DNA of 64,000 bases from positions 18-64,017 of the forward strand of contig CALRBH010000005.1 in the NCBI GenBank assembly GCA_943354165.1, given 5' to 3'. The notes under the pieces were generated by a model, which did not search any database, was not told the origin of the DNA, and worked only from the letters and a program-made list of their open reading frames with translations. The translations under genes were made by a program, and so were the position numbers. Positions 8,250-58,188 of this stretch are shown piece after piece. How positions within the stretch are numbered: position 1 is the stretch's first letter; each line of letters starts with the position of its first letter. The DNA comes from Candidatus Uhrbacteria bacterium RIFOXYB12_FULL_58_10 (lineage in GTDB: Bacteria; Patescibacteriota; Patescibacteriia; UBA9934; GWF2-40-263).

Positions 8250-8326
8250 GTTAGTAGTAAGTAGATAGTAGTTAGTAGGGTTGAATGACGGAAAACTACT
8301 ATCTACTTACTACTATCTACTATCTA
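8250..8326. repeat. TAGTAG-family hairpin, copy T2
   Basis: The arm gttagtagtaagtagatagtagttagtag pairs with ctactatctacttactactatctactatcta. It lies between the epimerase start and the prfB stop and provides the prfB TAG stop. Confidence 0.85.
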
Positions 8327-11748: not shown

Positions 11749-11864
11749 GGGTTGTAAGGGTTGTAATGGACTGTTAGGGGCGAAAGGTCGCTAGGAAAGC
11801 ACGGACGGTCGGGAAAACCCCTTACCACCCTTACTGCCCTTACAGCCCTTACAGCCCTTACCGC
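11749..11864. repeat. GTAAGGG-family hairpin (G family) upstream of groES
   Basis: The forward arm gggttgtaagggttgtaatggactgttagggg is complemented by ccccttaccacccttactgcccttacagcccttacagcccttacc. Confidence 0.8.
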
Positions 11865-11884
11865 CCACGGAATGTCGCTAGATA

Positions 11885-11911: not shown

Positions 11912-13253
11912 CGGCGATATTTTTATCGGTTTTTATTGACTTGTCAAGACAAATCCCACACACAATCGCTGCGAGGGCGAGCCCGCTCCAGAGGCTCCAG
12001 AGGTAATGATCAAACAGGGCAAGGACGATGAGGCAGGCGATCAACGAGGCGGCCATGATGCCGTCGCGCGTAAATAATCGAGGACGGAGCGAGCGCCACA
12101 GTTCCCTTCCCGCTAGGAGAAAGAAGAGGGAGGCGAGAAGACCGCCTTCGGCGAGGAACAGGAGGAAGGCGTTGTGGACTGGCTGGTAGGCGTAGGACGG
12201 GAATCCGGGGCGAAGTGCGGCGAGCTTCGAAGTGAATTGTGAGGTCCCGGTTCCAAGGATCGGACTCGACATGAACACCTCTGGAAATTGGGCGAGGGCG
12301 GCGTAGCGTTCTGCGATCGAACGTTCTTCCAGCCGCGCGGTCGGAATGGCGCGCGTAAGGACTTCCGTTCGGAAGACGATGAGAGTCAGGAGGATGGCGC
12401 AGCCGGCGATGCCGGCGACCGGAAGCGCGCGGCGTGGAAGTTCACGACGGGACCAGAGCAAGAGGATGCCGACGGTTCCGGTTCCAGCCGCCACCGCGAG
12501 CCAGGCGCTGCGGGAAAAGGTGAGGATCAGGGTCGCGGAAAAGATCGCGAGAGCTAAACGCGTCGCGGGCTGATGCCATGAACGGCAACCGCCCCTAACC
12601 CCTCCTTGGCGAAGGAGGGGAATCGCGCTTAGTTCCCAAATGCAAAGCAGGATACCAACTGCCAAATAGCCACCAAACACGTTTGGATGCGGGAATGAAC
12701 CATACGCACGCAGCGTGCGGATGCCTCCGGCGGATTCCACGACGGATGCGCCGAGTTCTGGCGCGTTGTGCGCGGAAAGGCCGAGCCAATGACTGGCGGG
12801 ACTATCGCCCATGAAGGTCTGAATTATCCCGAAGAGACTCACGGGCACGAGTCCGGCAATGAAGGCGTGGCGTGCCATCGAGACATCGGTTCGCTCATCG
12901 GTGATGAGGAGAGCGAGTGCCGCGGCCGCAGCAACATGGAAGAGATGCGAGAGGGCGAGGAGCGGATCTGCGCTCACGAATGAACTCGCGAGCAGGGCAA
13001 GAGCACAGAGTTTTGCCCAGCGGAAAAGTAGTTGGTAGGTGGTAGTTGGTAGTTGGGGTTTTCCGCGTGCAACAAGAAGAGCGAGTGCGAGGAGTTCGGT
13101 TGCGTACAACAGGGTTTTTCCGTACTCCCATCCCCCGCCATCAAGCGTTCTCTCCATCACGATCCACACCATCTGCCACGGCAACAGGAAAAGCAGCGCG
13201 TACAGGCCGTTGGTTACGAGGCGATCTTTGTTCATACGCCGTGAATTCGACAT
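11895..13253 (-). CDS. O-antigen ligase / O-antigen polymerase family membrane protein (Wzy_C domain)
   Basis: It is a multi-TM protein with the motif TFSRSAWLAVAAG characteristic of the WaaL/Wzy_C family. It contains an in-frame P-family hairpin at 12599..12620 encoding PLLRQGG. Confidence 0.7.
   Translation of the reverse strand: MSNSRRMNKDRLVTNGLYALLFLLPWQMVWIVMERTLDGGGWEYGKTLLYATELLALALLVARGKPQLPTTTYQLLFRWAKLCALALLASSFVSADPLLALSHLFHVAAAAALALLITDERTDVSMARHAFIAGLVPVSLFGIIQTFMGDSPASHWLGLSAHNAPELGASVVESAGGIRTLRAYGSFPHPNVFGGYLAVGILLCIWELSAIPLLRQGGVRGGCRSWHQPATRLALAIFSATLILTFSRSAWLAVAAGTGTVGILLLWSRRELPRRALPVAGIAGCAILLTLIVFRTEVLTRAIPTARLEERSIAERYAALAQFPEVFMSSPILGTGTSQFTSKLAALRPGFPSYAYQPVHNAFLLFLAEGGLLASLFFLLAGRELWRSLRPRLFTRDGIMAASLIACLIVLALFDHYLWSLWSGLALAAIVCGICLDKSIKTDKNIAASNLN
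12599..12620. repeat. P-family hairpin (cccctccttggcgaaggagggg) in-frame within the O-antigen ligase CDS
   Basis: A perfect 9-bp stem with a 4-nt loop. It is the same core as at 7438 and 25231. Confidence 0.75.
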
Positions 13254-17298: not shown

Positions 17299-17375
17299 TG
17301 GTGGACGCTGGGGGATTCGAACCCTCGACCTACTCGGTGTAAACGAGCCGCTCTAACCAGCTGAGCTAAGCGTCC
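17299..17375 (-). tRNA. tRNA-Val (anticodon TAC), CCA encoded
   Basis: The reverse complement GGACGCTTAGCTCAGCTGGTTAGAGCGGCTCGTTTACACCGAGTAGGTCGAGGGTTCGAATCCCCCAGCGTCCACCA forms a cloverleaf with a 7-bp acceptor stem, the anticodon loop TTTACAC and a TTCGAAT T-loop. There is one A:C mismatch in the T-stem. Confidence 0.9.
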
Positions 17376-17630
17376 ATAATTTTCAACTAACCAGGTCCGA
17401 CGCCCTGATGGGGTACGGACCCCCGACCGCATCAGCGCGTCGGGGCTGAGCTAAGCGTCCATAATTTTCAACTAACCAGGTCCGACGCCCTGATGGGGTA
17501 CGGACCCCCGACCGCATCAGCGCGTCGGGGCTGAGCTAAGCGTCCATAATTTTCAACTAACCAGGTCCGACGCCCTGATGGGGTACGGACCCCCGACCGC
17601 ATCAGCGCGTCGGGGCTGAGCTAAGCGTCC
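17376..17630. repeat. Three perfect tandem 85-bp units immediately 5' of tRNA-Val(TAC). In tRNA orientation each unit is the tRNA 5' 15 nt (GGACGCTTAGCTCAG), then a 51-nt GC-rich hairpin insert, then TGGTTAG and 11 nt.
   Basis: The period is 85 (units start at 17376, 17461 and 17546), and every unit ends with gctgagctaagcgtcc, identical to tRNA positions 1-16. The insert has inverted repeats (CCGACGC/GCGTCGG and CTGATG/CATCAG). A related single element lies 5' of tRNA-Ile at 34528..34620. Confidence 0.9.
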
Positions 17631-23468: not shown

Positions 23469-25178
23469 TTACATTTCCATTGCTGGCTTGATGCCGAGGA
23501 GCGCAAGACCGTTTTCGAGCACCTGCTGCACGGCCTTCACCGTCGCGAGGCGCGCCATGCGCTCTTCCCCTTCACTCGAGGCGACGGGAACGGCTTCGTA
23601 GTAGGAACTGAAGGTCTGGGCGAGGTCGAAGAGGTACTGGGCGATGAGACTTGGCTTCAACTCGGCTCCCGCGGCCGCTACGGCTTCAGGATAAGAGGCC
23701 AGCGCAAGCAGCAACCGATGCTCCAGTGGATGTGTGAACCTCAATCCCTTACCACCTTTACCGCCCTTACCACCTTTACCCGCCTTCTTGAGCACACTCG
23801 TTGCGCGGGCGAACATATAGAGGAGGTATGGGCCGGAGAAACCTTCGAACGACATGGCTTCGGCGCGATCAAAGATGATTTTCTTGTCCGGATCCTGCTT
23901 GAGCATCGCGAAGCGGATGGCGGCGAAGGCTACCGACTGCGCCGCGGCGTCGAGTTGCTTCTGGCTCCAGTCCTCATGGCGCTTCTTGGATTCCGCATGC
24001 GCCGCCGCGATCAGCTCATCGCGGAACTCTTCATACCGAATCGCGTTTCCTTTCCGGGAGGACATTGATCCTTCCTTAAGAGTGACGAATTCGTAGGAAA
24101 CGTGTTCCATCTCCTTCTCGAACCCCATCCGCTTGAGGGTCGCAAACAGCTGGCGCATGGCGAGCGTCTGGCGGCCGTCGATCACGAACAGACTGCGCGG
24201 GGCGTGATAGTCATCATCCTTGCGCATCGCGAGGGCGAGGTCCTTGGCGTTGTACAGAAGCGTCCCATCGGACTTCACAAGCAGGTTGGCTCCGAAGCCT
24301 TCATCCTCCAAGTCGACGATCCAAGCTCCTTCACTCATTTTTACGATCCCTTTCTTTTTCAAATCCTCGATGATCTCCTTGGTTTGAGGAATGAGATCGC
24401 TCTCATAATAGGTTTTCTGGATGGTGAGGCCGAGTTCCTTCTGGATGGCCTTAAAGTTCTTGAGCGACCAAGTGCGGGTTTGCTTCCAGAGGCGCACAGC
24501 GGGACCCTTGAGGTCCTCGAGCTCGTGGTGGATGGCGGAAATAGCCTGCTTCACTACTGGATCTGCAGACGCAGCGACCGCTTCCACGTACATGCGCTCA
24601 AGAAACGCGATATCATCCTCGTCCGCGCGGCGCTGGTCCTTGCTGCGCTGGATGGCCCAAAGACAGGCGGCCACGTTCGCGCCCAAATCGTTCACATAGG
24701 ACACGGGAATCACCTCATGACCGAGCGCACGCAGAAGATCAACGACCGCCTGGCCCAAAAAGAAATTTCGAAGGTGACCGACGTGCAATCCTTTGTGCGT
24801 ATTCGGGTTCGCGAACTCGACGAGGACCCGTTTGCCCTGGCCCGAATCGGACGTGCCGAACTTTTTGCCATCGGCGGCAATCTCTCCGAGGATCGCGGTG
24901 CCGAAAGAAGTGTCGTCGAACGTAAAGTTAATGTACGGACCCTTGGCCTCCGCCTTCTTAATGAATCCGTCTGGCGAAATCTTCGGCGCAAGCTCGGAAG
25001 CGATCTCCATGGGGTTCCGGCCCATTCCTTTTGCGAGGACGAAACAGGGAAACGCAATGTCGCCCATTGCTGGGTCTGGTGGGCTCGTGAGGTCTGCCAT
25101 CGTCGGCGCGTATTCCTTGCCGATCGCGGACTTCAACGCGAGCAGGACCTGCTTTTTGGCATCGAGCATGATGGACAT
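23469..25178 (-). CDS. argS: Arginine--tRNA ligase
   Basis: The 569-aa protein has a HIGH-region variant (PNTHKGLHVGHLRN), a KMSK-like motif and a DALR anticodon-binding C-terminus. It contains a GKGGKGGKGGKG insertion encoded by the G-family repeat. Confidence 0.95.
   Translation of the reverse strand: MSIMLDAKKQVLLALKSAIGKEYAPTMADLTSPPDPAMGDIAFPCFVLAKGMGRNPMEIASELAPKISPDGFIKKAEAKGPYINFTFDDTSFGTAILGEIAADGKKFGTSDSGQGKRVLVEFANPNTHKGLHVGHLRNFFLGQAVVDLLRALGHEVIPVSYVNDLGANVAACLWAIQRSKDQRRADEDDIAFLERMYVEAVAASADPVVKQAISAIHHELEDLKGPAVRLWKQTRTWSLKNFKAIQKELGLTIQKTYYESDLIPQTKEIIEDLKKKGIVKMSEGAWIVDLEDEGFGANLLVKSDGTLLYNAKDLALAMRKDDDYHAPRSLFVIDGRQTLAMRQLFATLKRMGFEKEMEHVSYEFVTLKEGSMSSRKGNAIRYEEFRDELIAAAHAESKKRHEDWSQKQLDAAAQSVAFAAIRFAMLKQDPDKKIIFDRAEAMSFEGFSGPYLLYMFARATSVLKKAGKGGKGGKGGKGLRFTHPLEHRLLLALASYPEAVAAAGAELKPSLIAQYLFDLAQTFSSYYEAVPVASSEGEERMARLATVKAVQQVLENGLALLGIKPAMEM
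23746..23784. repeat. GTAAGGG-family repeat embedded in-frame in argS, encoding (GKG)n
   Basis: cccttaccacctttaccgcccttaccacctttacccgcc is the reverse complement of GGTAAGGG/GGTAAAGG units and encodes KKAGKGGKGGKGGKG. Confidence 0.75.
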
Positions 25179-26568: not shown

Positions 26569-29229
26569 TTACAGGGCTTTGAGCTGAACCTCTAAGGCCG
26601 ACAGCTTCAACTGCGCCTCTGCGAGCTTCGCCCGCATCTCGGCGACCACCTTCTCCGGCGCCTTACCAACGAATTCCTTGTTAGTAAGCTTGGCTTCCGT
26701 ACCATCAATGTACTTACGAGCCGAAGCGATCTCGCCTTCGATGCGCGTGCGTTCCTTCGCCATGTCTACGAGACCGGCGAGGGGGATATGTATCGTGAAT
26801 CCGGTACCGACGGCGGACATGCTTCCCTCTGGCTTAGCGGCATCAGCCGCAATCGTCAGTTCGCCCACACGCGCCAATCGACGAATCAGCGATGCGTTCG
26901 CTTCGAGAAGTTCCGCCTGCGCACCCGCCGAAATCACCGCGACAATTTCCTTGGCTGGTTCCACCTTGTAGTCGGCACGCATCGCACGAATCGACGTAAT
27001 GACGCTTCGGACGGTTTCGAACTGCGCTTCGGCCTCTTCGTCGCGCGCGCCCGAACTTGTCGGATAAGGTTCGATGATGAGCATGCCCTTCTCACCCATT
27101 TCCTTCCAGATCGTCTCCGTCACAAACGGCATGAACGGATGCCAGAGGCGAATGATTCCATTGAGAATGAACCGAAGGTTCGCGTCGGTCGATACGAGAA
27201 GCGTCGCGTCCGTACGCTGGATCTTTGCGATCTCGAGATACCAGTCGGCGAACTCACTCCAGGTGAATTCACGCAAAGTTTCTCCGGCGGCAGAGTAATC
27301 CTTGTTCTCAAGGAATCGAACGGTTTTGCTAACAGTTTCCTCGAATCGGGACATGATCCACCGATCAGCCAAGGTCGTTCCTGTGGCCTCCGGCCTAACG
27401 CCTAACGCCTGTGCCCCAACTGTCGTCAGCACGAACCGGGAAATGTTCCAAAGCTTGTTCGTAAAGTTCCGCAAGCCGGCAACCTTCTCCTCAGAGAGCT
27501 TCACGTCGTTCCCCGCCGTCGAACCGATCACGAGCGAGAGACGCGTGGCGTCCGCTCCGTACTTCGCGATCATGTCGAGCGGGTTGATGATGTTGCCGAG
27601 GGACTTCGACATCTTCCTTCCCTGCTCATCACGCACGAGGCCGTGCAAGTAAACTTCCTTGAACGGAACTTCACCGAGAAGATAAGTCGTCATGCTCACC
27701 ATGCGCACGACCCAGAAGGTCAGAATGTCGTAACCTGTTTCGAGAACGCTCGTCGGATGGAATGTCTTGAGATCGTTCGTCTTCTCAGGCCAACCCAATG
27801 TCGAAAACGTCCAAAGTCCGGAGCTGAACCAGGTATCGAGGGTGTCTTCATCCTGAACCCACCCATCTCCCTCAGGAGCCGATGTGCCGACAAAAGTTTC
27901 CTCCCCGACCTCCCGGACCTCCCCAACCTTCCCAACCTTTCGGTACCAGACAGGAACGCGATGTCCGAACCAAATCTGGCGGCTGATACACCAGTCGCGG
28001 AGATTATCGACCCATTGGAAGTAGGCCTTCTCGAATCGCTCTGGGGTGATCTTCACCTTGCCGGAACGAACGGCGTCCTGGGTCAAAGTTTTCAACGTCG
28101 CCTTCTTGCCATCGCGATCAAATTCCTTGGAAGCACTGATAAACCACTGCAATTTAGGCAAAGGTTCGACGGTTCCGCCCGAACGTTCGGCGGTCGCCAA
28201 GTTCTGAATCGTCTTTTCCTCTGCTTCGATGAGACCTTGCTCCTTCAACCATGAAGCGACGATTTCGCGGGCTTCTTTCGTTGTCTTGCCAGCGACGAGT
28301 GGTCCGGCCACCTCGTTCATCCGTCCGTCTTCACCAATCACCTGCTTCAAGGTGAGTCCGTGACGATCTGCGATATCGGCGTCGATCAAACTATGTGCAG
28401 GCGTAACACCAAGCGCACCGGTTCCGAACTCTGGATCGACGGAATCGTCGGCGACGACCTTAATGGAAATCGTCGTGCCAGCGAATGGGATGTTTCCGAA
28501 TGTCATCCCGACGAACTGCTTGTAACGAGCGTCCTTTGGGTTCACGGCCACGGCCATGTCCCCTACTTTGGTCTCCGGGCGCGTCGTGGAAATGGCGATC
28601 GGGAAGTCCTTGCTGTACTTGAACGTATAAAGCGTCGCCTCCACTTCCTTATAGATAATTTCGATGTCTGAAATGGTCGTCTGTCCAAGCGGATCCCAGT
28701 TAATGACGCGATAGCCGCGATAAATAAGGCCGTCGTCGTACATCTTTTTGAAGGCGACATTCACGGTATGATTGCGCTCTGCGTCGAGCGTGTAGGCCTC
28801 GCGACTCCAATCGAGCGAGCTCCCCATCTTCTTGCACTGGTTCACGATAGTATCGTGGCTCTCCTGGGCGAACTTGTTCACCTCATCCAAAAACTTCTCT
28901 CGGCCAAGCGTGTGGCGAGGAGATTTCATGCCGCCCTCGATCAAAAGCTTCTCGACTTTCGACTGAGTTGCAATCGCGGCGTGGTCTGTACCAGGAATCC
29001 AGAGCGCCTTCTTGCCGCGCATGCGCTCAAAACGGACCATGAGGTCCTGGATGGCGAGCATAGTGGCGTGGCCCATGTGGAGCGTGCCGGTCACGTTCGG
29101 TGGAGGCAGAACCATGGAGAACGGTTCTTTGCGTTCGCCTGGAAGATTGTCGGGGTTGAAGAATCCACTCTGTTCCCAGTCCTTATAGACCTGGTCTTCG
29201 TGGGCTCCTGGCTCGTAGGCTTTTGGCAT
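26569..29229 (-). CDS. valS: Valine--tRNA ligase
   Basis: MPKAYEPGAHE.. aligns with ValRS N-termini, and a HIGH-like motif (PPNVTGTLHMGHA), KMSKS and a C-terminal coiled coil are present. A W-family repeat is inserted in-frame at 27901..27943. The ORF extends upstream to 29388 through another W-family copy. Confidence 0.95.
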   Translation of the reverse strand: MPKAYEPGAHEDQVYKDWEQSGFFNPDNLPGERKEPFSMVLPPPNVTGTLHMGHATMLAIQDLMVRFERMRGKKALWIPGTDHAAIATQSKVEKLLIEGGMKSPRHTLGREKFLDEVNKFAQESHDTIVNQCKKMGSSLDWSREAYTLDAERNHTVNVAFKKMYDDGLIYRGYRVINWDPLGQTTISDIEIIYKEVEATLYTFKYSKDFPIAISTTRPETKVGDMAVAVNPKDARYKQFVGMTFGNIPFAGTTISIKVVADDSVDPEFGTGALGVTPAHSLIDADIADRHGLTLKQVIGEDGRMNEVAGPLVAGKTTKEAREIVASWLKEQGLIEAEEKTIQNLATAERSGGTVEPLPKLQWFISASKEFDRDGKKATLKTLTQDAVRSGKVKITPERFEKAYFQWVDNLRDWCISRQIWFGHRVPVWYRKVGKVGEVREVGEETFVGTSAPEGDGWVQDEDTLDTWFSSGLWTFSTLGWPEKTNDLKTFHPTSVLETGYDILTFWVVRMVSMTTYLLGEVPFKEVYLHGLVRDEQGRKMSKSLGNIINPLDMIAKYGADATRLSLVIGSTAGNDVKLSEEKVAGLRNFTNKLWNISRFVLTTVGAQALGVRPEATGTTLADRWIMSRFEETVSKTVRFLENKDYSAAGETLREFTWSEFADWYLEIAKIQRTDATLLVSTDANLRFILNGIIRLWHPFMPFVTETIWKEMGEKGMLIIEPYPTSSGARDEEAEAQFETVRSVITSIRAMRADYKVEPAKEIVAVISAGAQAELLEANASLIRRLARVGELTIAADAAKPEGSMSAVGTGFTIHIPLAGLVDMAKERTRIEGEIASARKYIDGTEAKLTNKEFVGKAPEKVVAEMRAKLAEAQLKLSALEVQLKAL
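27901..27943. repeat. W-family repeat (GGTTGGGGAAGTTTGGGAGGTTCGGAAGG type) inserted in-frame in valS, encoding KVGKVGEVREVGEE
   Basis: The plus strand ctccccgacctcccggacctccccaaccttcccaacctttcgg is the reverse complement of the family consensus. It lies in the conserved ..WYRK^..TFVG.. region. Confidence 0.8.
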
Positions 29230-29244
29230 GTCGGGCATAAGCGA

Positions 29245-29284
29245 GAGGTTTGGAAGGTTGGGGAGGTTCGGAAGGTTTGGAAGG
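29245..29284. repeat. W-family repeat just upstream of the valS start. If translated in the valS frame it would encode LPNLPNLPNL.
   Basis: gaggtttggaaggttggggaggttcggaaggtttggaagg. Confidence 0.8.
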
Positions 29285-29336
29285 ATGAGTTGAATCGGGT
29301 TTACTGTAGGGGAAATTGGGCTGGGGGGCAATATTG

Positions 29337-34527: not shown

Positions 34528-34620
34528 TCGGGTCCGTAGCTCAGCCCCGACGCTCCCTGATGGGAGGTCGGGGGTCCGACCGCCTCAGCGCGTCGGACCT
34601 GGTTACTCGCTCGGCAAACT
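34528..34620. repeat. tRNA-associated element 5' of tRNA-Ile(TAT): the tRNA 5' 15 nt (GGGTCCGTAGCTCAG), a 55-nt GC-rich hairpin insert, TGGTTA and 17 nt
   Basis: The insert CCCCGACGCTCCCTGATGGGAGGTCGGGGGTCCGACCGCCTCAGCGCGTCGGACC is clearly homologous to the insert in the 85-bp units at 17376..17630. Confidence 0.85.
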
Positions 34621-34621
34621 T

Positions 34622-34698
34622 GGGTCCGTAGCTCAGTTGGTTAGAGCGCCGAGCTTATACCTCGGTGGTCGATGGTTCGAGTCCATCCGGACCCACCA
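34622..34698 (+). tRNA. tRNA-Ile (anticodon TAT), an unusual UAU anticodon, CCA encoded
   Basis: GGGTCCGTAGCTCAGTTGGTTAGAGCGCCGAGCTTATACCTCGGTGGTCGATGGTTCGAGTCCATCCGGACCCACCA has a 7-bp acceptor stem, the anticodon stem CCGAG/CTCGG and the loop CTTATAC. Confidence 0.8.
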
Positions 34699-34889: not shown

Positions 34890-34898
34890 AGAACAAGA

Positions 34899-34997
34899 GT
34901 TAGTAGATAGTAGTAAGTAGTTAGTAGATAGTAGTAAGTAGTTAGTAGATTTTCCGTCGCACATCCCTACTAACTACTATCTACTAACTACTAACTC
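34899..34997. repeat. TAGTAG-family hairpin, copy T3 (left arm internally duplicated)
   Basis: gttagtagatagtagtaagtagttagtagatagtagtaagtagttagtagat, a loop, then tactaactactatctactaactactaactca. Confidence 0.85.
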
Positions 34998-46258: not shown

Positions 46259-46345
46259 GCCCAGGTGGCGGAATTGGTATACGCGCAGGTCTCAGAAGCC
46301 TGTGCCCTTACGGGCTTGAGAGTTCGAGTCTCTCTCTGGGCACCA
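46259..46345 (+). tRNA. tRNA-Leu (anticodon CAG), class II, CCA encoded
   Basis: GCCCAGGTGGCGGAATTGGTATACGCGCAGGTCTCAGAAGCCTGTGCCCTTACGGGCTTGAGAGTTCGAGTCTCTCTCTGGGCACCA. Confidence 0.9.
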
Positions 46346-46442
46346 TTCGACTCGCTGTTGCTCGCTCATGGTCTTTGACCATCGGAACGAATTTTTCAAA
46401 CTACTAACTACTTACTACAAACTACTAACTGTATTTTTTGCT

Positions 46443-49407: not shown

Positions 49408-49925
49408 GCGGTCCTGGGACGGCCGGACGGCTACGGTGGATCGCAAGATTCGCTGAGGAAAGTCCGAACACCCGTGGCATCGCAAGGTGCTACGCCAAGG
49501 AACGTCGCTAACGGCGACCGGGTATACCTGTGGGATGTAGAGGCGTTGGAGCAATTCACGCTTTTGGATCTCATAATAAGCCTAGGGAAAGTCTCCCCTG
49601 AAGATAGGACGGGGAGTGCGAAACCAGATCGAAAGGTCTGGGGACGTAGCCACAGAGACAATACTGACGGCCTTCGCGCAAGCCAGGCAGCTGCCTGGCA
49701 AGCATGGCCGCTCAAGGTGAAAAGTGAGGTGATGTGTCGCAAGACGCTGCACCTCTCCCTGCATGGTGACATGCAGGCGATGCAAACCCGTTCCGGTGCA
49801 AGAGCAAGTTTGGTAGCTCGCACGAGCCATGCAGCAATGTATGGACCAGAGAGATGGCCGTCTCCTGCGCACCTAACCCGTGCGGAGAAGACAAAATTCG
49901 GCTTACAGGCCGCTCCCAGGACAGC
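49408..49925 (+). ncRNA. rnpB: RNase P RNA (bacterial type A)
   Basis: The P4 strands GAGGAAAGTCCG and ACAAAATTCGGCTTACAGG are conserved, as are ACAGAGACAATAC..GGCC and AAGGTGAAAAGTG, which correspond to E. coli M1 CAACAGAGAGCAAACC and GGTAAGGGTGAAAGGGTG. P1 pairs GTCCTGGGA with TCCCAGGAC. A terminator follows. Confidence 0.85.
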
Positions 49926-51393: not shown

Positions 51394-51395
51394 AA

Positions 51396-51487
51396 GGGCT
51401 GTAAGGATGGTAAGGGCGGTAATGGACTGTAAGGGCGAAAGATCGAACCAACCCCTTACCATCCTTACAACCCTTACAGCCCTCACC
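51396..51487. repeat. GTAAGGG-family hairpin (G family) between wbaP and the GT4 gene
   Basis: gggctgtaaggatggtaagggcggtaatggactgtaagggcg pairs with ccccttaccatccttacaacccttacagccctcacc. Confidence 0.8.
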
Positions 51488-52590: not shown

Positions 52591-53727
52591 GTGAACATTC
52601 TCATAGACATCCGACATCTTGGAGGAGGAACTCCGAGCGGAGTCGGTCAGTACGCGCGCGAACTTTTGCGTGCGCTTCTTCCGCTTGATCCGACCGTTTC
52701 GTACACGTTGCTTTCGACCGGCTTTCGAAAACCAACGCTTCCCTTTTCACTTCCGCTAAACGCAAAACACGTTCACATCCACGCGCCCAACCGGGCGTTG
52801 TTTGCGTCCATGGCGTTGGCATTTCCGAAGCTCGATAAGCTCGTAAAAGGCCGATTCGACGTAGTTTTCGTGCCGAATCTACATGTGACTCCCCTCTCGG
52901 CTGGAATCCCGATGGTCCTCACGATCCACGACGCGAGCTGGCTGGTAAATCCGTCCTGGTTTTCTCCAAAGACAAGGCTCTGGCACAAGATCGTCCGACC
53001 GAAAGTGCTCGTCGATCGCGCAACGCGATTGATCGTTCCGTCTGAAAGCACCGCGCGAGAAGCACAGGCTTTCCTTGGCGCTGACCCGTCGAAAATTCGT
53101 ATAATCCCACACGGCGTGGATCCGATCTTTTCGCCGAAGCCGACGCCACAGGATCACGGCGTGCGATCGCGCTTGAATCTTCCGAAGCGCTTCGCTCTCT
53201 TCCTTGGAACCATCGAAGCGCGTAAAAACGTCGACGGAATCATCGAGGCGGTCCGAATGTACCGCGAGAAGACCGGCGATCGACTCGAACTCGTTCTCGT
53301 GGGATCGAAAGGTTGGGGAAGTTTGGGAGGTTCGGAAGGTTTGGGAGGACGAAAGGATGAGTGGGTTACTCGTCTAGGTTACGTCCCCGACACTGACCGT
53401 CCGGCGCTCTACCGATTCGCGTCCGTGTTTCTTTTTTCATCTCACATGGAAGGGTTCGGCATGCCTGTCCTTGAGGCGATGGCGAGCGGGACGCCGGTCA
53501 TCACCAGTCCGCGCGGTGCGCTCCCGGAAGTTGCCGGTGACGCGGCGATGTATGCAGACCCAATCGACCCGAATCGCATCGAAATGTGCCTTGAGCAATT
53601 CTTCGGTAGCCAAGAGTTACAAGCGAAATTATCGGCGCGTGGATTGGAACGAGCGAAGGGGTTTGATTGGGGAGAGACCGCGCGAAAGACCTTGGAAACA
53701 TTGAGAGAAGCGGCTGGGCACGAATAG
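52591..53727 (+). CDS. Glycosyltransferase family 4 (GT-B), with an in-frame W-family repeat insertion
   Basis: EGFGMPVLEAMASGTPVI is present. The linker LVLVGSKGWGSLGGSEGLGGRKDE is encoded by the repeat at 53311..53348. Confidence 0.85.
   Translation: MNILIDIRHLGGGTPSGVGQYARELLRALLPLDPTVSYTLLSTGFRKPTLPFSLPLNAKHVHIHAPNRALFASMALAFPKLDKLVKGRFDVVFVPNLHVTPLSAGIPMVLTIHDASWLVNPSWFSPKTRLWHKIVRPKVLVDRATRLIVPSESTAREAQAFLGADPSKIRIIPHGVDPIFSPKPTPQDHGVRSRLNLPKRFALFLGTIEARKNVDGIIEAVRMYREKTGDRLELVLVGSKGWGSLGGSEGLGGRKDEWVTRLGYVPDTDRPALYRFASVFLFSSHMEGFGMPVLEAMASGTPVITSPRGALPEVAGDAAMYADPIDPNRIEMCLEQFFGSQELQAKLSARGLERAKGFDWGETARKTLETLREAAGHE
53311..53348. repeat. W-family repeat in-frame within the GT4 gene (encodes GWGSLGGSEGLGG)
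   Basis: ggttggggaagtttgggaggttcggaaggtttgggagg. Confidence 0.8.
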
Positions 53728-54297: not shown

Positions 54298-54346
54298 AAC
54301 CCCAACCTCCCCAACCTTCCGAACTTCCCAAACCTCCCCAACCCCT
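54298..54346. repeat. W-family repeat (reverse orientation), intergenic upstream of the GT4 gene
   Basis: caaccccaacctccccaaccttccgaacttcccaaacctccccaacccc. Confidence 0.8.
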
Positions 54347-55482: not shown

Positions 55483-58188
55483 ATGGAGGAGAACGGCCGC
55501 AACAATCCACGCATTATTGCTCGGGTAAACGAAACCGCGAGCGACTCGGCGCTTGAGAGGCTTTTGCGTACGCGCCGTTCGAGTCTCACCGCGGACAACT
55601 CGCTTCCAGGCGAGGTGCGGGCGCGCAGTCTGTTCCAGCCGGAGGAACAGGGACTTTTTCTTAAACGCACTTCACACAATCCCCTTTCCCCGCACATTCT
55701 CTCCCTGCGCGCGCCCGCCCAGGAGCCAGAGGCCTCGTTTGATGGCGTGAACATGCTGGATGGCGAAGTGGTAGAAATTGTAGAAGGCGTAGAAAATGGG
55801 CTTGGTTTGGATCGCGACGACCTTGCCGGACAGCTGCTTGAAGAAACCCTGCCGCTCATCGACACTTCAAAGACTTCTTTGCAATACGTAGAAATTGCCC
55901 TGCCGGATCTTGCTGGTTTCCGCCGCGAAGCCGAGCTCCTTGGACTGAATGCCTTGGAGGTTGCGCCGGATGGCGCAGACCTCTCCGTACTGGCGCCGGT
56001 TTCCATGCCAGAGCGGCTCGCAAACATGTTCGAACTCCCCGATGCCGATGAATCGGAGGGTGAGGAAGAAGACGTTCTCATCGAATTCGCCGGACACGAC
56101 GAAGGTGTCGTGACAATCGAAGAGGTTGGGGAAGTTTGGGATGTTCGGGAAGTTGAGGAGGAAATAAACCTTCCGAACCTACCAAACCTCCCCAACATCC
56201 CAAACCTTTCGTTTTGGCGCTTGCCGCAGCTCCGCACGCTCGGAGCGTTCGTTCTGCTTTCCTTCGCCATCGTTCTGCCGATTCATGCAATGAATGTGGC
56301 GGGAATTTGGGGGAATGCCAAAGACGCTGTGACGAAGCAAGGAGAAACCGGGGCGACGTTGCTTTCTTCCGGAGCCTCTTCCGCGCTTTCGCGTGATGCG
56401 TCTGAGGCGGCGCGTGCGTTTGGCAGCGCGCAGACGAGCTTTGCGCAGGCCCAGTCGTCCGTGTCGAATCTTGGCGTCGCGGCGAACGCGATCATTTCGG
56501 CATTGCCATCAGGATCGAAGGTGGCCTCTGCGAACGCCGTGCTTACGGCCGGTGAAGCTCTCTCGATTGCTGGCGGTCGCATCTCTGAAGGCATCGCTTC
56601 GCTTGGGAACGATCCGCTCGCGAGCCCAACGGACCGCATCGCGCTCTTGCAGGCGTACCTTGAAGGCGCGCTTCCTCACCTTGAGCGTGCGGAGGCAGCC
56701 ATCGCAAAGGTGGATGTACAAACCCTCCCACCAGAAAGCCAATCACGTTTCACCATCCTTCAACAATCCATTCCAAGCGTCGTCTCCGGGATCCGCGAGC
56801 TCATCGAAGTGACCGATGCGGCCTATGCCGTGCTTGGCGGAACCGGGACCAAGCGCTACCTCGCCATCTTCCAGAACAATACGGAAATTCGCCCAACAGG
56901 TGGGTTCATGGGGAGCTTCGCCGAGATGGATATTCGCAAAGGCGAGATCGCCAAGCTCACCATTCCGGGCGGCGGAACGTACGATCTGCGCGCGGGCGTC
57001 ATGAAGCCGTTCATTTCTCCGAAACCACTCAGACTCCTCTCCGCCGCATGGGAATTCCAGGACGCGAACTGGTTCCCAGACTTCCCTACGAGCGCGCGCC
57101 AGATCATGCAGTTCTATGAACATGCCGGACAACCAACGGTAGATGGGGTGATCGCCGTGAACGCCACGTTCGTCGCCTCCCTCCTCGATCTCCTTGGCTC
57201 CATAGAGATGCCGGAATACGGACGCACCATCGACAGCAAGAATTTCCTCCTCGAGACGCAGAAAATCGTAGAGAATGAATACGATCGCGACGAGAACAAG
57301 CCGAAGGCGTTCATCGGCGACCTCGCACCGAAACTTCTTGAGAAGGCTAAGGCGCTTCCGCCAGAAGGATTCCTCGCCTTCCTCGACACCTTGCAGCAAG
57401 GACTCTCTTCCCGCGACATCCAGATCTACTTCGATGATCAGGAGCTCCAGAAACAGGTGATTGAACGCGGATGGGGCGGCGAGCTCAAGTGGAGCGACGG
57501 CGATTACTTCATGGCCGTGGACACCAACCTCGGCGGCGGGAAAACAGACGGCGTCATCCAGCAGAAGATCGACATAAAGGTGAACATTGAGGCCGATGGA
57601 ACCGTTACGGACTCCGTCACGGTCACCCGCACGCACTTTGGCCAGCCAGGAAGCGACTTCTCCGGAGTGAACAACGTCGATTACCTGCGCTTATACGTTC
57701 CCAAAGGCAGTGAGCTTCTCTCAGCCGACGGGTTCTCCATTCCAGACGCCTCCCTCTTCGACGCTCCGATGACGGATTGGCTCATCGACGATGACTTGAT
57801 CTACGGATTGGACGGTGCAAAGACGGATGCGAAGAGCGGAACGGACATCTTCGAGGAATCCGGGAAGACCGTATTCGGCAACTGGATCCAAACGAAACCA
57901 GGCGCCACATCCACCGCACATTTCACCTATCGACTGCCGTTCAAGGTGGAGGTCGGGAAGGCGGATCCTACGCTCATCGACCGGCTGAAGACTTCCCTAG
58001 GGGTCCCAAACACCGGCCGCTACACACTCACCCTCCAGAAGCAGTCCGGGATCCTCGATCGCACCACGACCGTTCACCTTACCGCACCTGAAGCCTGGAA
58101 TCTCGCCTGGTCTTCGCATGAAACGGACGGCGTATCCTTCACCAACGCCATGGATTCATTCTTCGCTACCATCTTTGAACGCAACTAG
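55483..58188 (+). CDS. DUF4012 domain protein (membrane-anchored, cell-envelope glycan associated), carrying an in-frame W-family hairpin
   Basis: The 901-aa protein has an internal TM helix (LGAFVLLSFAIVLPI) and the DUF4012-like core (YLAIFQNNTEIRPTGGFMGSFA...DANWFPDFP). The region 56124..56211 encodes EVGEVWDVREVEEEINLPNLPNLPNIPNL. Confidence 0.7.
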   Translation: MEENGRNNPRIIARVNETASDSALERLLRTRRSSLTADNSLPGEVRARSLFQPEEQGLFLKRTSHNPLSPHILSLRAPAQEPEASFDGVNMLDGEVVEIVEGVENGLGLDRDDLAGQLLEETLPLIDTSKTSLQYVEIALPDLAGFRREAELLGLNALEVAPDGADLSVLAPVSMPERLANMFELPDADESEGEEEDVLIEFAGHDEGVVTIEEVGEVWDVREVEEEINLPNLPNLPNIPNLSFWRLPQLRTLGAFVLLSFAIVLPIHAMNVAGIWGNAKDAVTKQGETGATLLSSGASSALSRDASEAARAFGSAQTSFAQAQSSVSNLGVAANAIISALPSGSKVASANAVLTAGEALSIAGGRISEGIASLGNDPLASPTDRIALLQAYLEGALPHLERAEAAIAKVDVQTLPPESQSRFTILQQSIPSVVSGIRELIEVTDAAYAVLGGTGTKRYLAIFQNNTEIRPTGGFMGSFAEMDIRKGEIAKLTIPGGGTYDLRAGVMKPFISPKPLRLLSAAWEFQDANWFPDFPTSARQIMQFYEHAGQPTVDGVIAVNATFVASLLDLLGSIEMPEYGRTIDSKNFLLETQKIVENEYDRDENKPKAFIGDLAPKLLEKAKALPPEGFLAFLDTLQQGLSSRDIQIYFDDQELQKQVIERGWGGELKWSDGDYFMAVDTNLGGGKTDGVIQQKIDIKVNIEADGTVTDSVTVTRTHFGQPGSDFSGVNNVDYLRLYVPKGSELLSADGFSIPDASLFDAPMTDWLIDDDLIYGLDGAKTDAKSGTDIFEESGKTVFGNWIQTKPGATSTAHFTYRLPFKVEVGKADPTLIDRLKTSLGVPNTGRYTLTLQKQSGILDRTTTVHLTAPEAWNLAWSSHETDGVSFTNAMDSFFATIFERN
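56124..56211. repeat. Complete W-family hairpin (forward and reverse arms) embedded in-frame in the DUF4012 gene
   Basis: The forward arm ggttggggaagtttgggatgttcgggaagttgaggagg, then aaataaa, then the reverse arm ccttccgaacctaccaaacctccccaacatcccaaacctttcg. Both arms are translated. Confidence 0.8.

Follow-up and report, generated by a model that had tools for sequence, protein, structure and literature searches.

The tRNA-Ile gene studied here is probably a functional, lineage-conserved tRNA-Ile(UAU), and the block upstream of it is probably a gene-less ("solo") mobile cassette that targets the 5' part of tRNA genes; we hold this combined explanation, drawn from sequence comparison, with good confidence. 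Both lie in a 64-kb stretch of DNA, the whole of which is called the window below. The window comes from a metagenome scaffold of 66 kb. Besides bacterial housekeeping genes, it holds those for a class A RNase P RNA and a T4SS-type pilin, and the closest named relatives of its proteins belong to Candidatus Uhrbacteria and other Patescibacteria. The tRNA-Ile locus has the following features:

34530..34544, + strand: orphan copy of tRNA-Ile nt 1-15, GGGTCCGTAGCTCAG, ending in AG; 15/15 identical to 34622-34636
34545..34573, + strand: hairpin A of the module termed E, CCCCGAC-G-CTCCC-TGAT-GGGAG-GTCGGGG (fold; covariation)
34574..34598, + strand: hairpin B of module E, GTCCGAC-CGC-CTCA-GCG-C-GTCGGAC (fold; covariation)
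34599..34605, + strand: CTGGTTA, a copy of the D-loop segment (tRNA nt 16-22), 6/7 identical
34606..34621, + strand: 16-nt spacer that forms the 5' leader right before the intact tRNA
34622..34698, + strand: tRNA-Ile, anticodon TAT (UAU), CCA encoded (ARAGORN; Rfam RF00005)

The initial annotation of this DNA had read the anticodon as UAU and had named a tRNA finder and AUA codon usage as the checks to make, and both bear it out. ARAGORN, run on the 64-kb window, kept the Ile identity and called the anticodon tat, and the gene scored 74.9 bits against the Rfam family RF00005 (gathering score 29) with a canonical cloverleaf and the anticodon loop CTTATAC. ATA accounts for 48 of 18,662 codons (2.6 per 1000) and is found in 24 of 49 genes. 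A syntenic tRNA-Ile(TAT), with conserved gene order, was present in three Uhrbacteria-like relatives, L084, L086 and L088 (the relatives used, L084/L085, L086/L087 from Uhrbacteria GCA_001791045.1 and L088, have about 60% protein identity and a GC content of 0.45-0.65), and the gene was also found in two more distant Patescibacteria, L107 and L116, which were reached via an unrelated route. The UAU tRNA is therefore not peculiar to this one genome. The CTTATA of the anticodon loop was invariant in the tRNA-Ile(TAT) of six distinct lineages, and an alignment of six tRNA-Ile(TAT) and one tRNA-Ile(GAT) contained compensatory changes at 15 of 21 stem pairs. Because of this syntenic conservation, the invariant CTTATA, the covarying stems and the use of AUA, we judge that tRNA-Ile(TAT) is a real, functional-looking gene, and it looks like a lineage-wide trait of Uhrbacteria-like Patescibacteria and no local mutation.

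According to Taniguchi et al. (2013, PMC3575796), a genomic UAU tRNA-Ile is recorded in few bacteria, with tilS missing in some of them and kept in others, and U34 of the Mycoplasma mobile tRNA-Ile(UAU) is unmodified; the earlier assumption that such a tRNA needs a special modification does not agree with the M. mobile case. The window, together with about 260 kb of related loci, contained neither a tRNA(CAT) nor an ORF with the SGGxDS PP-loop motif, and no IleRS was found among the window ORFs scanned with Pfam. The UAU tRNA may be a redundant AUA decoder beside tilS and tRNA-Ile2(CAU). In the open-access literature, we found no description of tRNA-Ile(UAU) or of TilS status in Patescibacteria.

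The block had been described as starting at 34528 and as a 5' element of the tRNA-Ile. Its existence was confirmed, but its actual start is 34530, and the element is a separate upstream relic and not a part of the tRNA itself. The GC-rich 54-nt module at 34545-34598 folds as two adjacent hairpins with -41.9 kcal/mol (z = -5.8; 0/200 shuffles fold as well), and it scores 53.5 bits with the covariance model R1 (E-value 4.6e-8). In the segment that follows, the upstream copy reads CTGGTTA vs TTGGTTA in the real D-loop; because C stands at tRNA position 16 in two relatives, the C of the copy may keep an older state of the tRNA. The 16-nt spacer has a weak similarity (CGGCAA) to the native leader of the relative L086. 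No Rfam family matched the upstream block, either at the gathering threshold or at E <= 10, and the tRNA alone gave a match. A hammerhead or other ribozyme, a D-loop intron and a split tRNA were considered as identities of the block and rejected because the fragment has no 3' partner and is followed by an intact tRNA.

The orthologous tRNA-Ile loci of L084, L086 and L088 have neither an orphan fragment nor a hairpin module, and the intergenic distance at the locus is 187 nt in the window vs 58-92 nt in the relatives. Since the tRNA stands without the block at the orthologous loci of three relatives, the block is, judged by this comparison, an insertion. A further contig, P0001, with an RluA 91% identical, ends before the tRNA.

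The observation that the tRNA-Val of the window is preceded by the same element family also stood, in the form of three units of 85 nt:

17299..17375, - strand: tRNA-Val, anticodon TAC (ARAGORN; Rfam 66.7 bits)
17376..17630, - strand: three perfect 85-nt tandem units (TRF period 85, 3.3 copies, 100% matches)
17395-17445, 17480-17530 and 17565-17615: the E copies in the array, 47.4 bits each (R1)

Each unit consists of GGACGCTTAGCTCAG (tRNA nt 1-15), a 51-nt E and CTGGTTAG, then TTGAAAATTAT, and six nucleotides from further upstream, AATTAT, belong to the duplicate. In this assembly, the array counts three such units. Among the six tRNA genes that ARAGORN found in the window, E is absent from four and present at those for Ile and Val. 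R1 detected exactly four copies over the 64 kb, all at tRNAs (47-54 bits, E-values 5e-8 to 6e-7), and the next best match scored 10.9 bits. At both window tRNAs, E follows AG inside the upstream 5' duplicate, after nt 15, and ends 19-23 nt before the tRNA start, the units being 85-92 nt long and without an ORF. No GIY-YIG homologue was found among the ORFs of the 64-kb window, and promoter scans gave no convincing tRNA promoter at either window locus.

The E family comprises 18 copies with a length of 40-59 nt, 16 of which entered the alignment. Under a two-hairpin model, 97.3% of the cells in these 16 copies were paired, and 20 double-sided changes were observed vs 7.0 in shuffles, with 0/500 shuffles reaching 20. 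A single long-hairpin model was rejected, having no covariation support. E consists of two adjacent 7-bp hairpins in which the inner CCGAC/GTCGG is invariant and variation is confined to the two outer pairs; those of hairpin B covary, with GC, UA, CG and UG at one and UA, CG and GC at the other. These invariant cores together with the free loops suggest recognition by a protein. The cassettes that were retrieved via the protein (described below) are an unbiased sample for the cores, and the cores were present in every one. E is preceded by AG in 14/18 copies, usually U8-A9-G10 of the tRNA and, in L112 and the window, A14-G15. At 11/12 tRNA-linked loci E is oriented in the tRNA direction, and GNRA-like loops are frequent in it; a role at the RNA level would agree with this bias and with such loops as well.

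Scans with a strict pattern gave nine matches in genome contigs, of which two were real copies (L005 and L010) and the others chance matches in high-GC genomes, and 29 matches in metagenome contigs, of which three were real (L019, L027 and L036). In viral contigs, a 14-nt core gave 43 matches and no real copy, some of the matches being tRNA T-arms. The copies in L005 and L027 are intergenic. Those in L010 and L019 share one position inside the LeuRS gene, where each adds exactly 17 codons (51 nt) and keeps the reading frame; none of the best 120 LeuRS homologues, which served as an empty-site control, has the insert, and the perfect stem identity of the two copies is partly ascertainment, the exact-stem pattern having found both. 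A degenerate E of 42 nt (14 codons) is in frame in the CCA-adding-enzyme gene of L104. Gene-less copies of the window design were found at the tRNA-Ala of L107 and at the tRNA-Val(GAC) of L036, where E sits between nt 10 and 11 of an upstream duplicate of the first 15 nt. Unrelated genomes show the E-split 5' design at no fewer than nine different tRNA loci. From the in-frame copies in LeuRS and in the CCA-adding-enzyme gene we infer that E can move on its own.

A looser search revealed a second E copy in L036, which is part of a larger arrangement: ACCAAC with tRNA-Phe nt 1-10, E, CTCAGTT (nt 11-17), an ORF of 90 aa and the intact tRNA-Phe. The ORF product belongs to the Pfam family GIY-YIG (E = 1.7e-14), and the stop codon of the ORF is nt 8-10 of the tRNA-Phe. 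A homologue search with this protein gave 105 matches of about 86-90 aa, annotated as GIY-YIG nuclease family protein of Patescibacteria, Paceibacterota or Parcubacteria. The loci beyond L036 were chosen by protein similarity alone and their contigs were then retrieved; at every retrieved locus, the gene adjoins a tRNA 5' end and E lies just upstream of the gene. The tRNA genes at these gene-bearing loci are:

tRNA-Phe: L093, L094-L103
tRNA-Lys: L104-L106
tRNA-Ile(TAT): L107-L111; L116-L120
tRNA-Ile(GAT): L112-L115

E was present in 7/7 distinct GIY-YIG loci, which correspond to 5/5 independent insertions examined, since L036, L093 and L094 are syntenic and go back to one old insertion. Along the tRNA strand, the layout is upstream context, tRNA nt 1-10 or 1-15 ending in AG, E, the next 4-11 nt of the tRNA, a GIY-YIG gene of about 87 aa and the intact tRNA. 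It was complete in six of the seven loci, the 5' fragment being decayed in the seventh, and in all gene-bearing loci the tRNA begins 270-287 nt after E ends. The window copies are best regarded as gene-less derivatives and not as full members because no GIY-YIG gene lies between E and the tRNA. In most cassettes E follows nt 10; in L112, as in the window, it follows nt 15, and L112 and the window also share a neighbourhood, upstream of RluA and L19. The orphan duplicates include 1-7 nt of upstream context, and on this ground we take them to be made at the DNA level. L107 contains a broken second tRNA-Ile(TAT) with two E modules, which we regard as evidence of repeated invasions. In L116 and L112, promoter-like sites immediately precede the orphan. 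The cassette sample is small, with five independent insertions with a gene and about five without.

The cassette nuclease is a Slx1/UPF0213-like GIY-YIG protein of about 87 aa. Tyr, Arg, His and Glu at catalytic-type positions and the basic C-terminal KLKKLKRRDYIEKII are kept in 26 homologues, down to 47% identity, and because these catalytic-type residues are conserved the protein looks active. Its closest solved structures are the UPF0213 proteins 1zg2 (E = 7e-4) and 1ywl (E = 0.011), which a survey of the GIY-YIG superfamily counts among the bacterial nucleases of a minimal, Slx1-like type; in eukaryotes, Slx1 acts as a structure-specific endonuclease (PMC1564403). An exhaustive search for the protein gave 115 clusters at E <= 1e-10 and 1276 at E <= 1e-3.

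Considering these results, we propose a plausible model for the cassette, whose mode of movement we infer from the arrangement of its parts. The nuclease would cut the DNA of tRNA genes beside the D-arm AG, where this target is empty; alternatively, it might act on the E hairpins as a structure-specific enzyme. Repair would copy the cassette from a filled allele, so that it inserts next to the conserved D-arm AG. As the cassette would end with a fresh tRNA 5' end, the tRNA would stay functional, and the original 5' end would be left orphaned upstream, split by E. The short tRNA segment after E does not fit a simple target-site-duplication model. Out-of-register repair or slippage between short direct repeats could then produce tandem units such as the 3 x 85-nt units at tRNA-Val. 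Gene-less copies would have lost the nuclease gene or have been moved in trans, and for the window a trans-acting nuclease is assumed elsewhere in the genome. The cassette would sit between the tRNA promoter and the tRNA and ride on tRNA transcription, with E as the 5' end of the nuclease mRNA; the promoter-like sites upstream of the orphan in L116 and L112 fit this step. In the window, the block would be transcribed with the 5' leader and cut away by RNase P; it probably does no harm to the tRNA, which would read the rare AUA codons.

Four other explanations of the locus were weighed against the solo cassette. The orphan fragment and the hairpins might be a leader RNA structure of the pre-tRNA, selected by the host for processing, stability or regulation. 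Such a structure would be in line with the strong fold (z = -3.6 to -5.8) and its covarying stems, with the orientation of 11/12 tRNA-linked loci, with the often GNRA-type loops of hairpin B and with the position of the block between a promoter-like region and the mature tRNA. However, three relatives have the orthologous tRNA-Ile without the block, and 2/6 window tRNAs carry it; moreover, the module also occurs in frame in protein-coding genes and at unrelated intergenic spots, is consistently paired with a nuclease gene elsewhere and has no Rfam family, and we regard a host-selected leader as unlikely. The consistent presence of E beside the gene, at 7/7 distinct GIY-YIG loci, likewise speaks against the idea that a RAYT (Y1, IS200-like) transposase moves E as a repeat of the REP/REPIN type, with the GIY-YIG link being incidental. 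E is a palindromic doublet with a conserved (T)AG just 5' of the first hairpin, GTAG adjoins the REPs of E. coli, and the relative L088 has a RAYT-like Y1_Tnp gene, all of which speak for this idea; yet the RAYT gene of L088 is flanked by a different repeat, GGGGTCAGGCCTTCGATCGTCGATTT, with no E at the locus, no Y1_Tnp homologue was found in the window, and E is low-copy and tRNA-linked rather than dispersed, the four window copies all being at tRNAs. We consider a RAYT-driven repeat quite improbable.

Direct repeats of part of a tRNA gene are a hallmark of elements integrated at tRNA genes, and slippage can produce tandem 85-nt units, so the block could in principle be the scar of an integrase island or a chance hairpin-stimulated duplication with no dedicated mobility system. 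Against such an origin, which appears very improbable, the duplicate is of the 5' end and not the 3' end, the units are small (85-92 nt), no integrase is nearby, and the E-split design recurs at nine or more tRNA loci in unrelated genomes. An error of assembly or sequencing as the origin of the UAU anticodon or of the block is barely conceivable. The DNA does come from a metagenome scaffold, and tandem repeats are easily misassembled, but an identical Ile block is found in the independently produced Logan assembly L092 (run SRR7054680, possibly from the same sample), which speaks against an assembly artefact; relatives from different samples likewise have TAT conserved, and homologous E copies occur in many datasets.

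The solo cassette thus remains our preferred explanation. A wider reading, which we offer as a possibility and would not count on, joins both parts of the locus: the hairpin and a minimal Slx1-like nuclease would form a new class of bacterial mobile element, and Patescibacteria as a phylum may decode AUA by means of UAU without TilS. Under this wider reading, the nuclease would be structure-specific and recognise the hairpin of its own cassette, place the cassette in the D-arm region of tRNA genes and rebuild the tRNA 5' end; hairpin modules that lack the gene would spread in trans and reach even protein-coding genes. If true, the large UPF0213 family would thereby gain its first biological role.

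The tRNA-Ile(UAU) adds a phylum-level lineage to the very short list of bacteria in which this gene is genomic, and bacterial life without lysidine becomes directly checkable in complete Patescibacteria genomes. For the nuclease, a subfamily of the function-unknown UPF0213/Slx1-like GIY-YIG proteins is tied to a concrete, testable DNA context. The cassette would account for orphan 5' tRNA fragments and tandem repeats before tRNA genes, which are otherwise open to mis-annotation as pseudo-tRNAs, tRNA introns or CRISPR-like arrays. Furthermore, a palindromic module of 40-59 nt is tolerated in frame inside essential translation genes of minimal genomes.

Among known systems, the cassette resembles the free-standing GIY-YIG homing endonucleases, such as SegB in the tRNA cluster of phage T4 (PMC2330249), in that a small gene is wedged in by tRNA genes and shows presence/absence polymorphism, here with empty sites in L084, L086 and L088. 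In contrast to Seg proteins and I-TevI, its protein is a minimal Slx1/UPF0213-type domain without a DNA-binding module; unlike T4 SegB, the cassette has a double hairpin and a split tRNA 5' duplicate and is chromosomal, in Patescibacteria, and the window copies differ from SegB-type elements also in having no nuclease gene. The protein has the same size and the same conserved residues as the UPF0213/Slx1-like proteins (1zg2, 1ywl; PMC1564403), whereas the cassette subfamily, unlike UPF0213 at large, which has no assigned role, is tied to E and a tRNA 5' end.

With REP/REPIN sequences, E shares the short GC-rich palindromic doublets and a conserved short motif 5' of the hairpin; it differs from them in being low-copy, tRNA-linked and without a RAYT, its partner being a GIY-YIG nuclease. 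Like the Rickettsia palindromic elements (RPE), E is a small palindrome that survives in frame in essential genes, but it is much shorter (40-59 nt), lies mostly at tRNA genes and has no sequence relation to them. As in tRNA-targeting integrative elements, the insert supplies the displaced part of the tRNA, so that the gene is intact and an orphan fragment is left; those elements use an integrase and the tRNA 3' part, whereas here the 5' part is used, in an insert of 85-350 bp that has no integrase. In the open-access literature, we found no description of a GIY-YIG-plus-hairpin cassette at tRNA 5' ends, and the cassette, which combines features of four known systems, is apparently undescribed.

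The closest parallel for the tRNA itself is M. mobile, which likewise has a genomic UAU on an otherwise normal bacterial tRNA-Ile, in a reduced genome where AUA is rare (PMC3575796). A difference is that the gene is here conserved over several Patescibacteria lineages with a GC content from 35% to 65%. With the tRNA-Ile(UAU) of these bacteria, a known rare decoder gains a new, lineage-wide instance.

In L107, a locus with a GIY-YIG cassette, a second copy of tRNA-Ile(TAT) is broken and contains two E (double-hairpin) modules, one located after nucleotide 10 and the other after about nucleotide 21, and its T arm holds a 20-nt insert. The 3′ end of this copy is matched by the orphan 5′ piece at position 2377, which suggests nested rounds of invasion that would also have brought in a new complete tRNA-Ile copy. 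E was further found in frame within protein-coding genes, and the arms of hairpin B were duplicated in the cassette of L104, a tRNA-Lys locus.

E modules in a broken tRNA, in genes and in a cassette
L107 2847-3060, plus strand: second tRNA-Ile(TAT) copy, broken
L104 2600-2642, minus strand: E in the CCA-adding enzyme gene, in frame, 14 codons
L010 915-965, minus strand: E in the LeuRS gene, in frame, 17 codons
L019 5256-5306, minus strand: E in the LeuRS gene, in frame, 17 codons
L104 2934-2967, plus strand: hairpin B of the cassette, arms duplicated

Both host enzymes, the CCA-adding enzyme and LeuRS, are tRNA-handling enzymes, possibly by chance. With its arms doubled (CCCCGAC CCCCGAC ... 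GTCGGGG C GTCGGGG), the L104 hairpin has a stem of 14 bp and a GCAA loop at its tip; E can therefore grow through duplication of its arms.

Two other genes were recognized in related loci.

L112 4164-4829, plus strand: LAGLIDADG-type ORF, faint Pfam match
L088 16560-17860, minus strand: RAYT-like Y1_Tnp protein, 286 aa, C-terminal HTH, between uvrA and a pilin gene

The LAGLIDADG-type ORF adjoins tRNA-Leu(GAG) in a locus that also contains a GIY-YIG cassette, and may be a further homing-type gene near tRNAs. In L088, an Uhrbacteria-like relative, a REP-like repeat specific to the RAYT-like gene, GGGGTCAGGCCTTCGATCGTCGATTT, borders it in both direct and inverted copies; at the matching position of the window, no gene is present.

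The window itself contains a family of heptamer repeats, short arrays with a 9-nt period and a class A RNase P RNA.

8295-8321, 13028-13056, 34898-34950, 34967-34996, 46399-46430, intergenic: tandem heptamer blocks (AGTAGTT / AACTACT)
11819-11866, 23746-23786, 27900-27938, 29246-29298, 51394-51437, 53310-53356, 54300-54343, 56166-56208, both strands: short 9-nt-period arrays
49415-49922, plus strand: class A RNase P RNA, Rfam match, 130.9 bits

Upstream of the RluA gene (35007), two heptamer blocks face each other, one direct and one inverted, and another block comes after tRNA-Leu (46259-46345); the family may represent a regulatory or protein-binding repeat. The eight 9-nt-period arrays, of types AGGTTCGGA, CCTCCCCAA and CCCTTACAG, read as (L/F)PN(L/F)PN... 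or GKGGKG... in some frames, and may either encode low-complexity protein tails or be non-coding repeats. The RNase P RNA spans 508 nt compared with 367 positions in the Rfam model, and thus carries about 140 nt extra.
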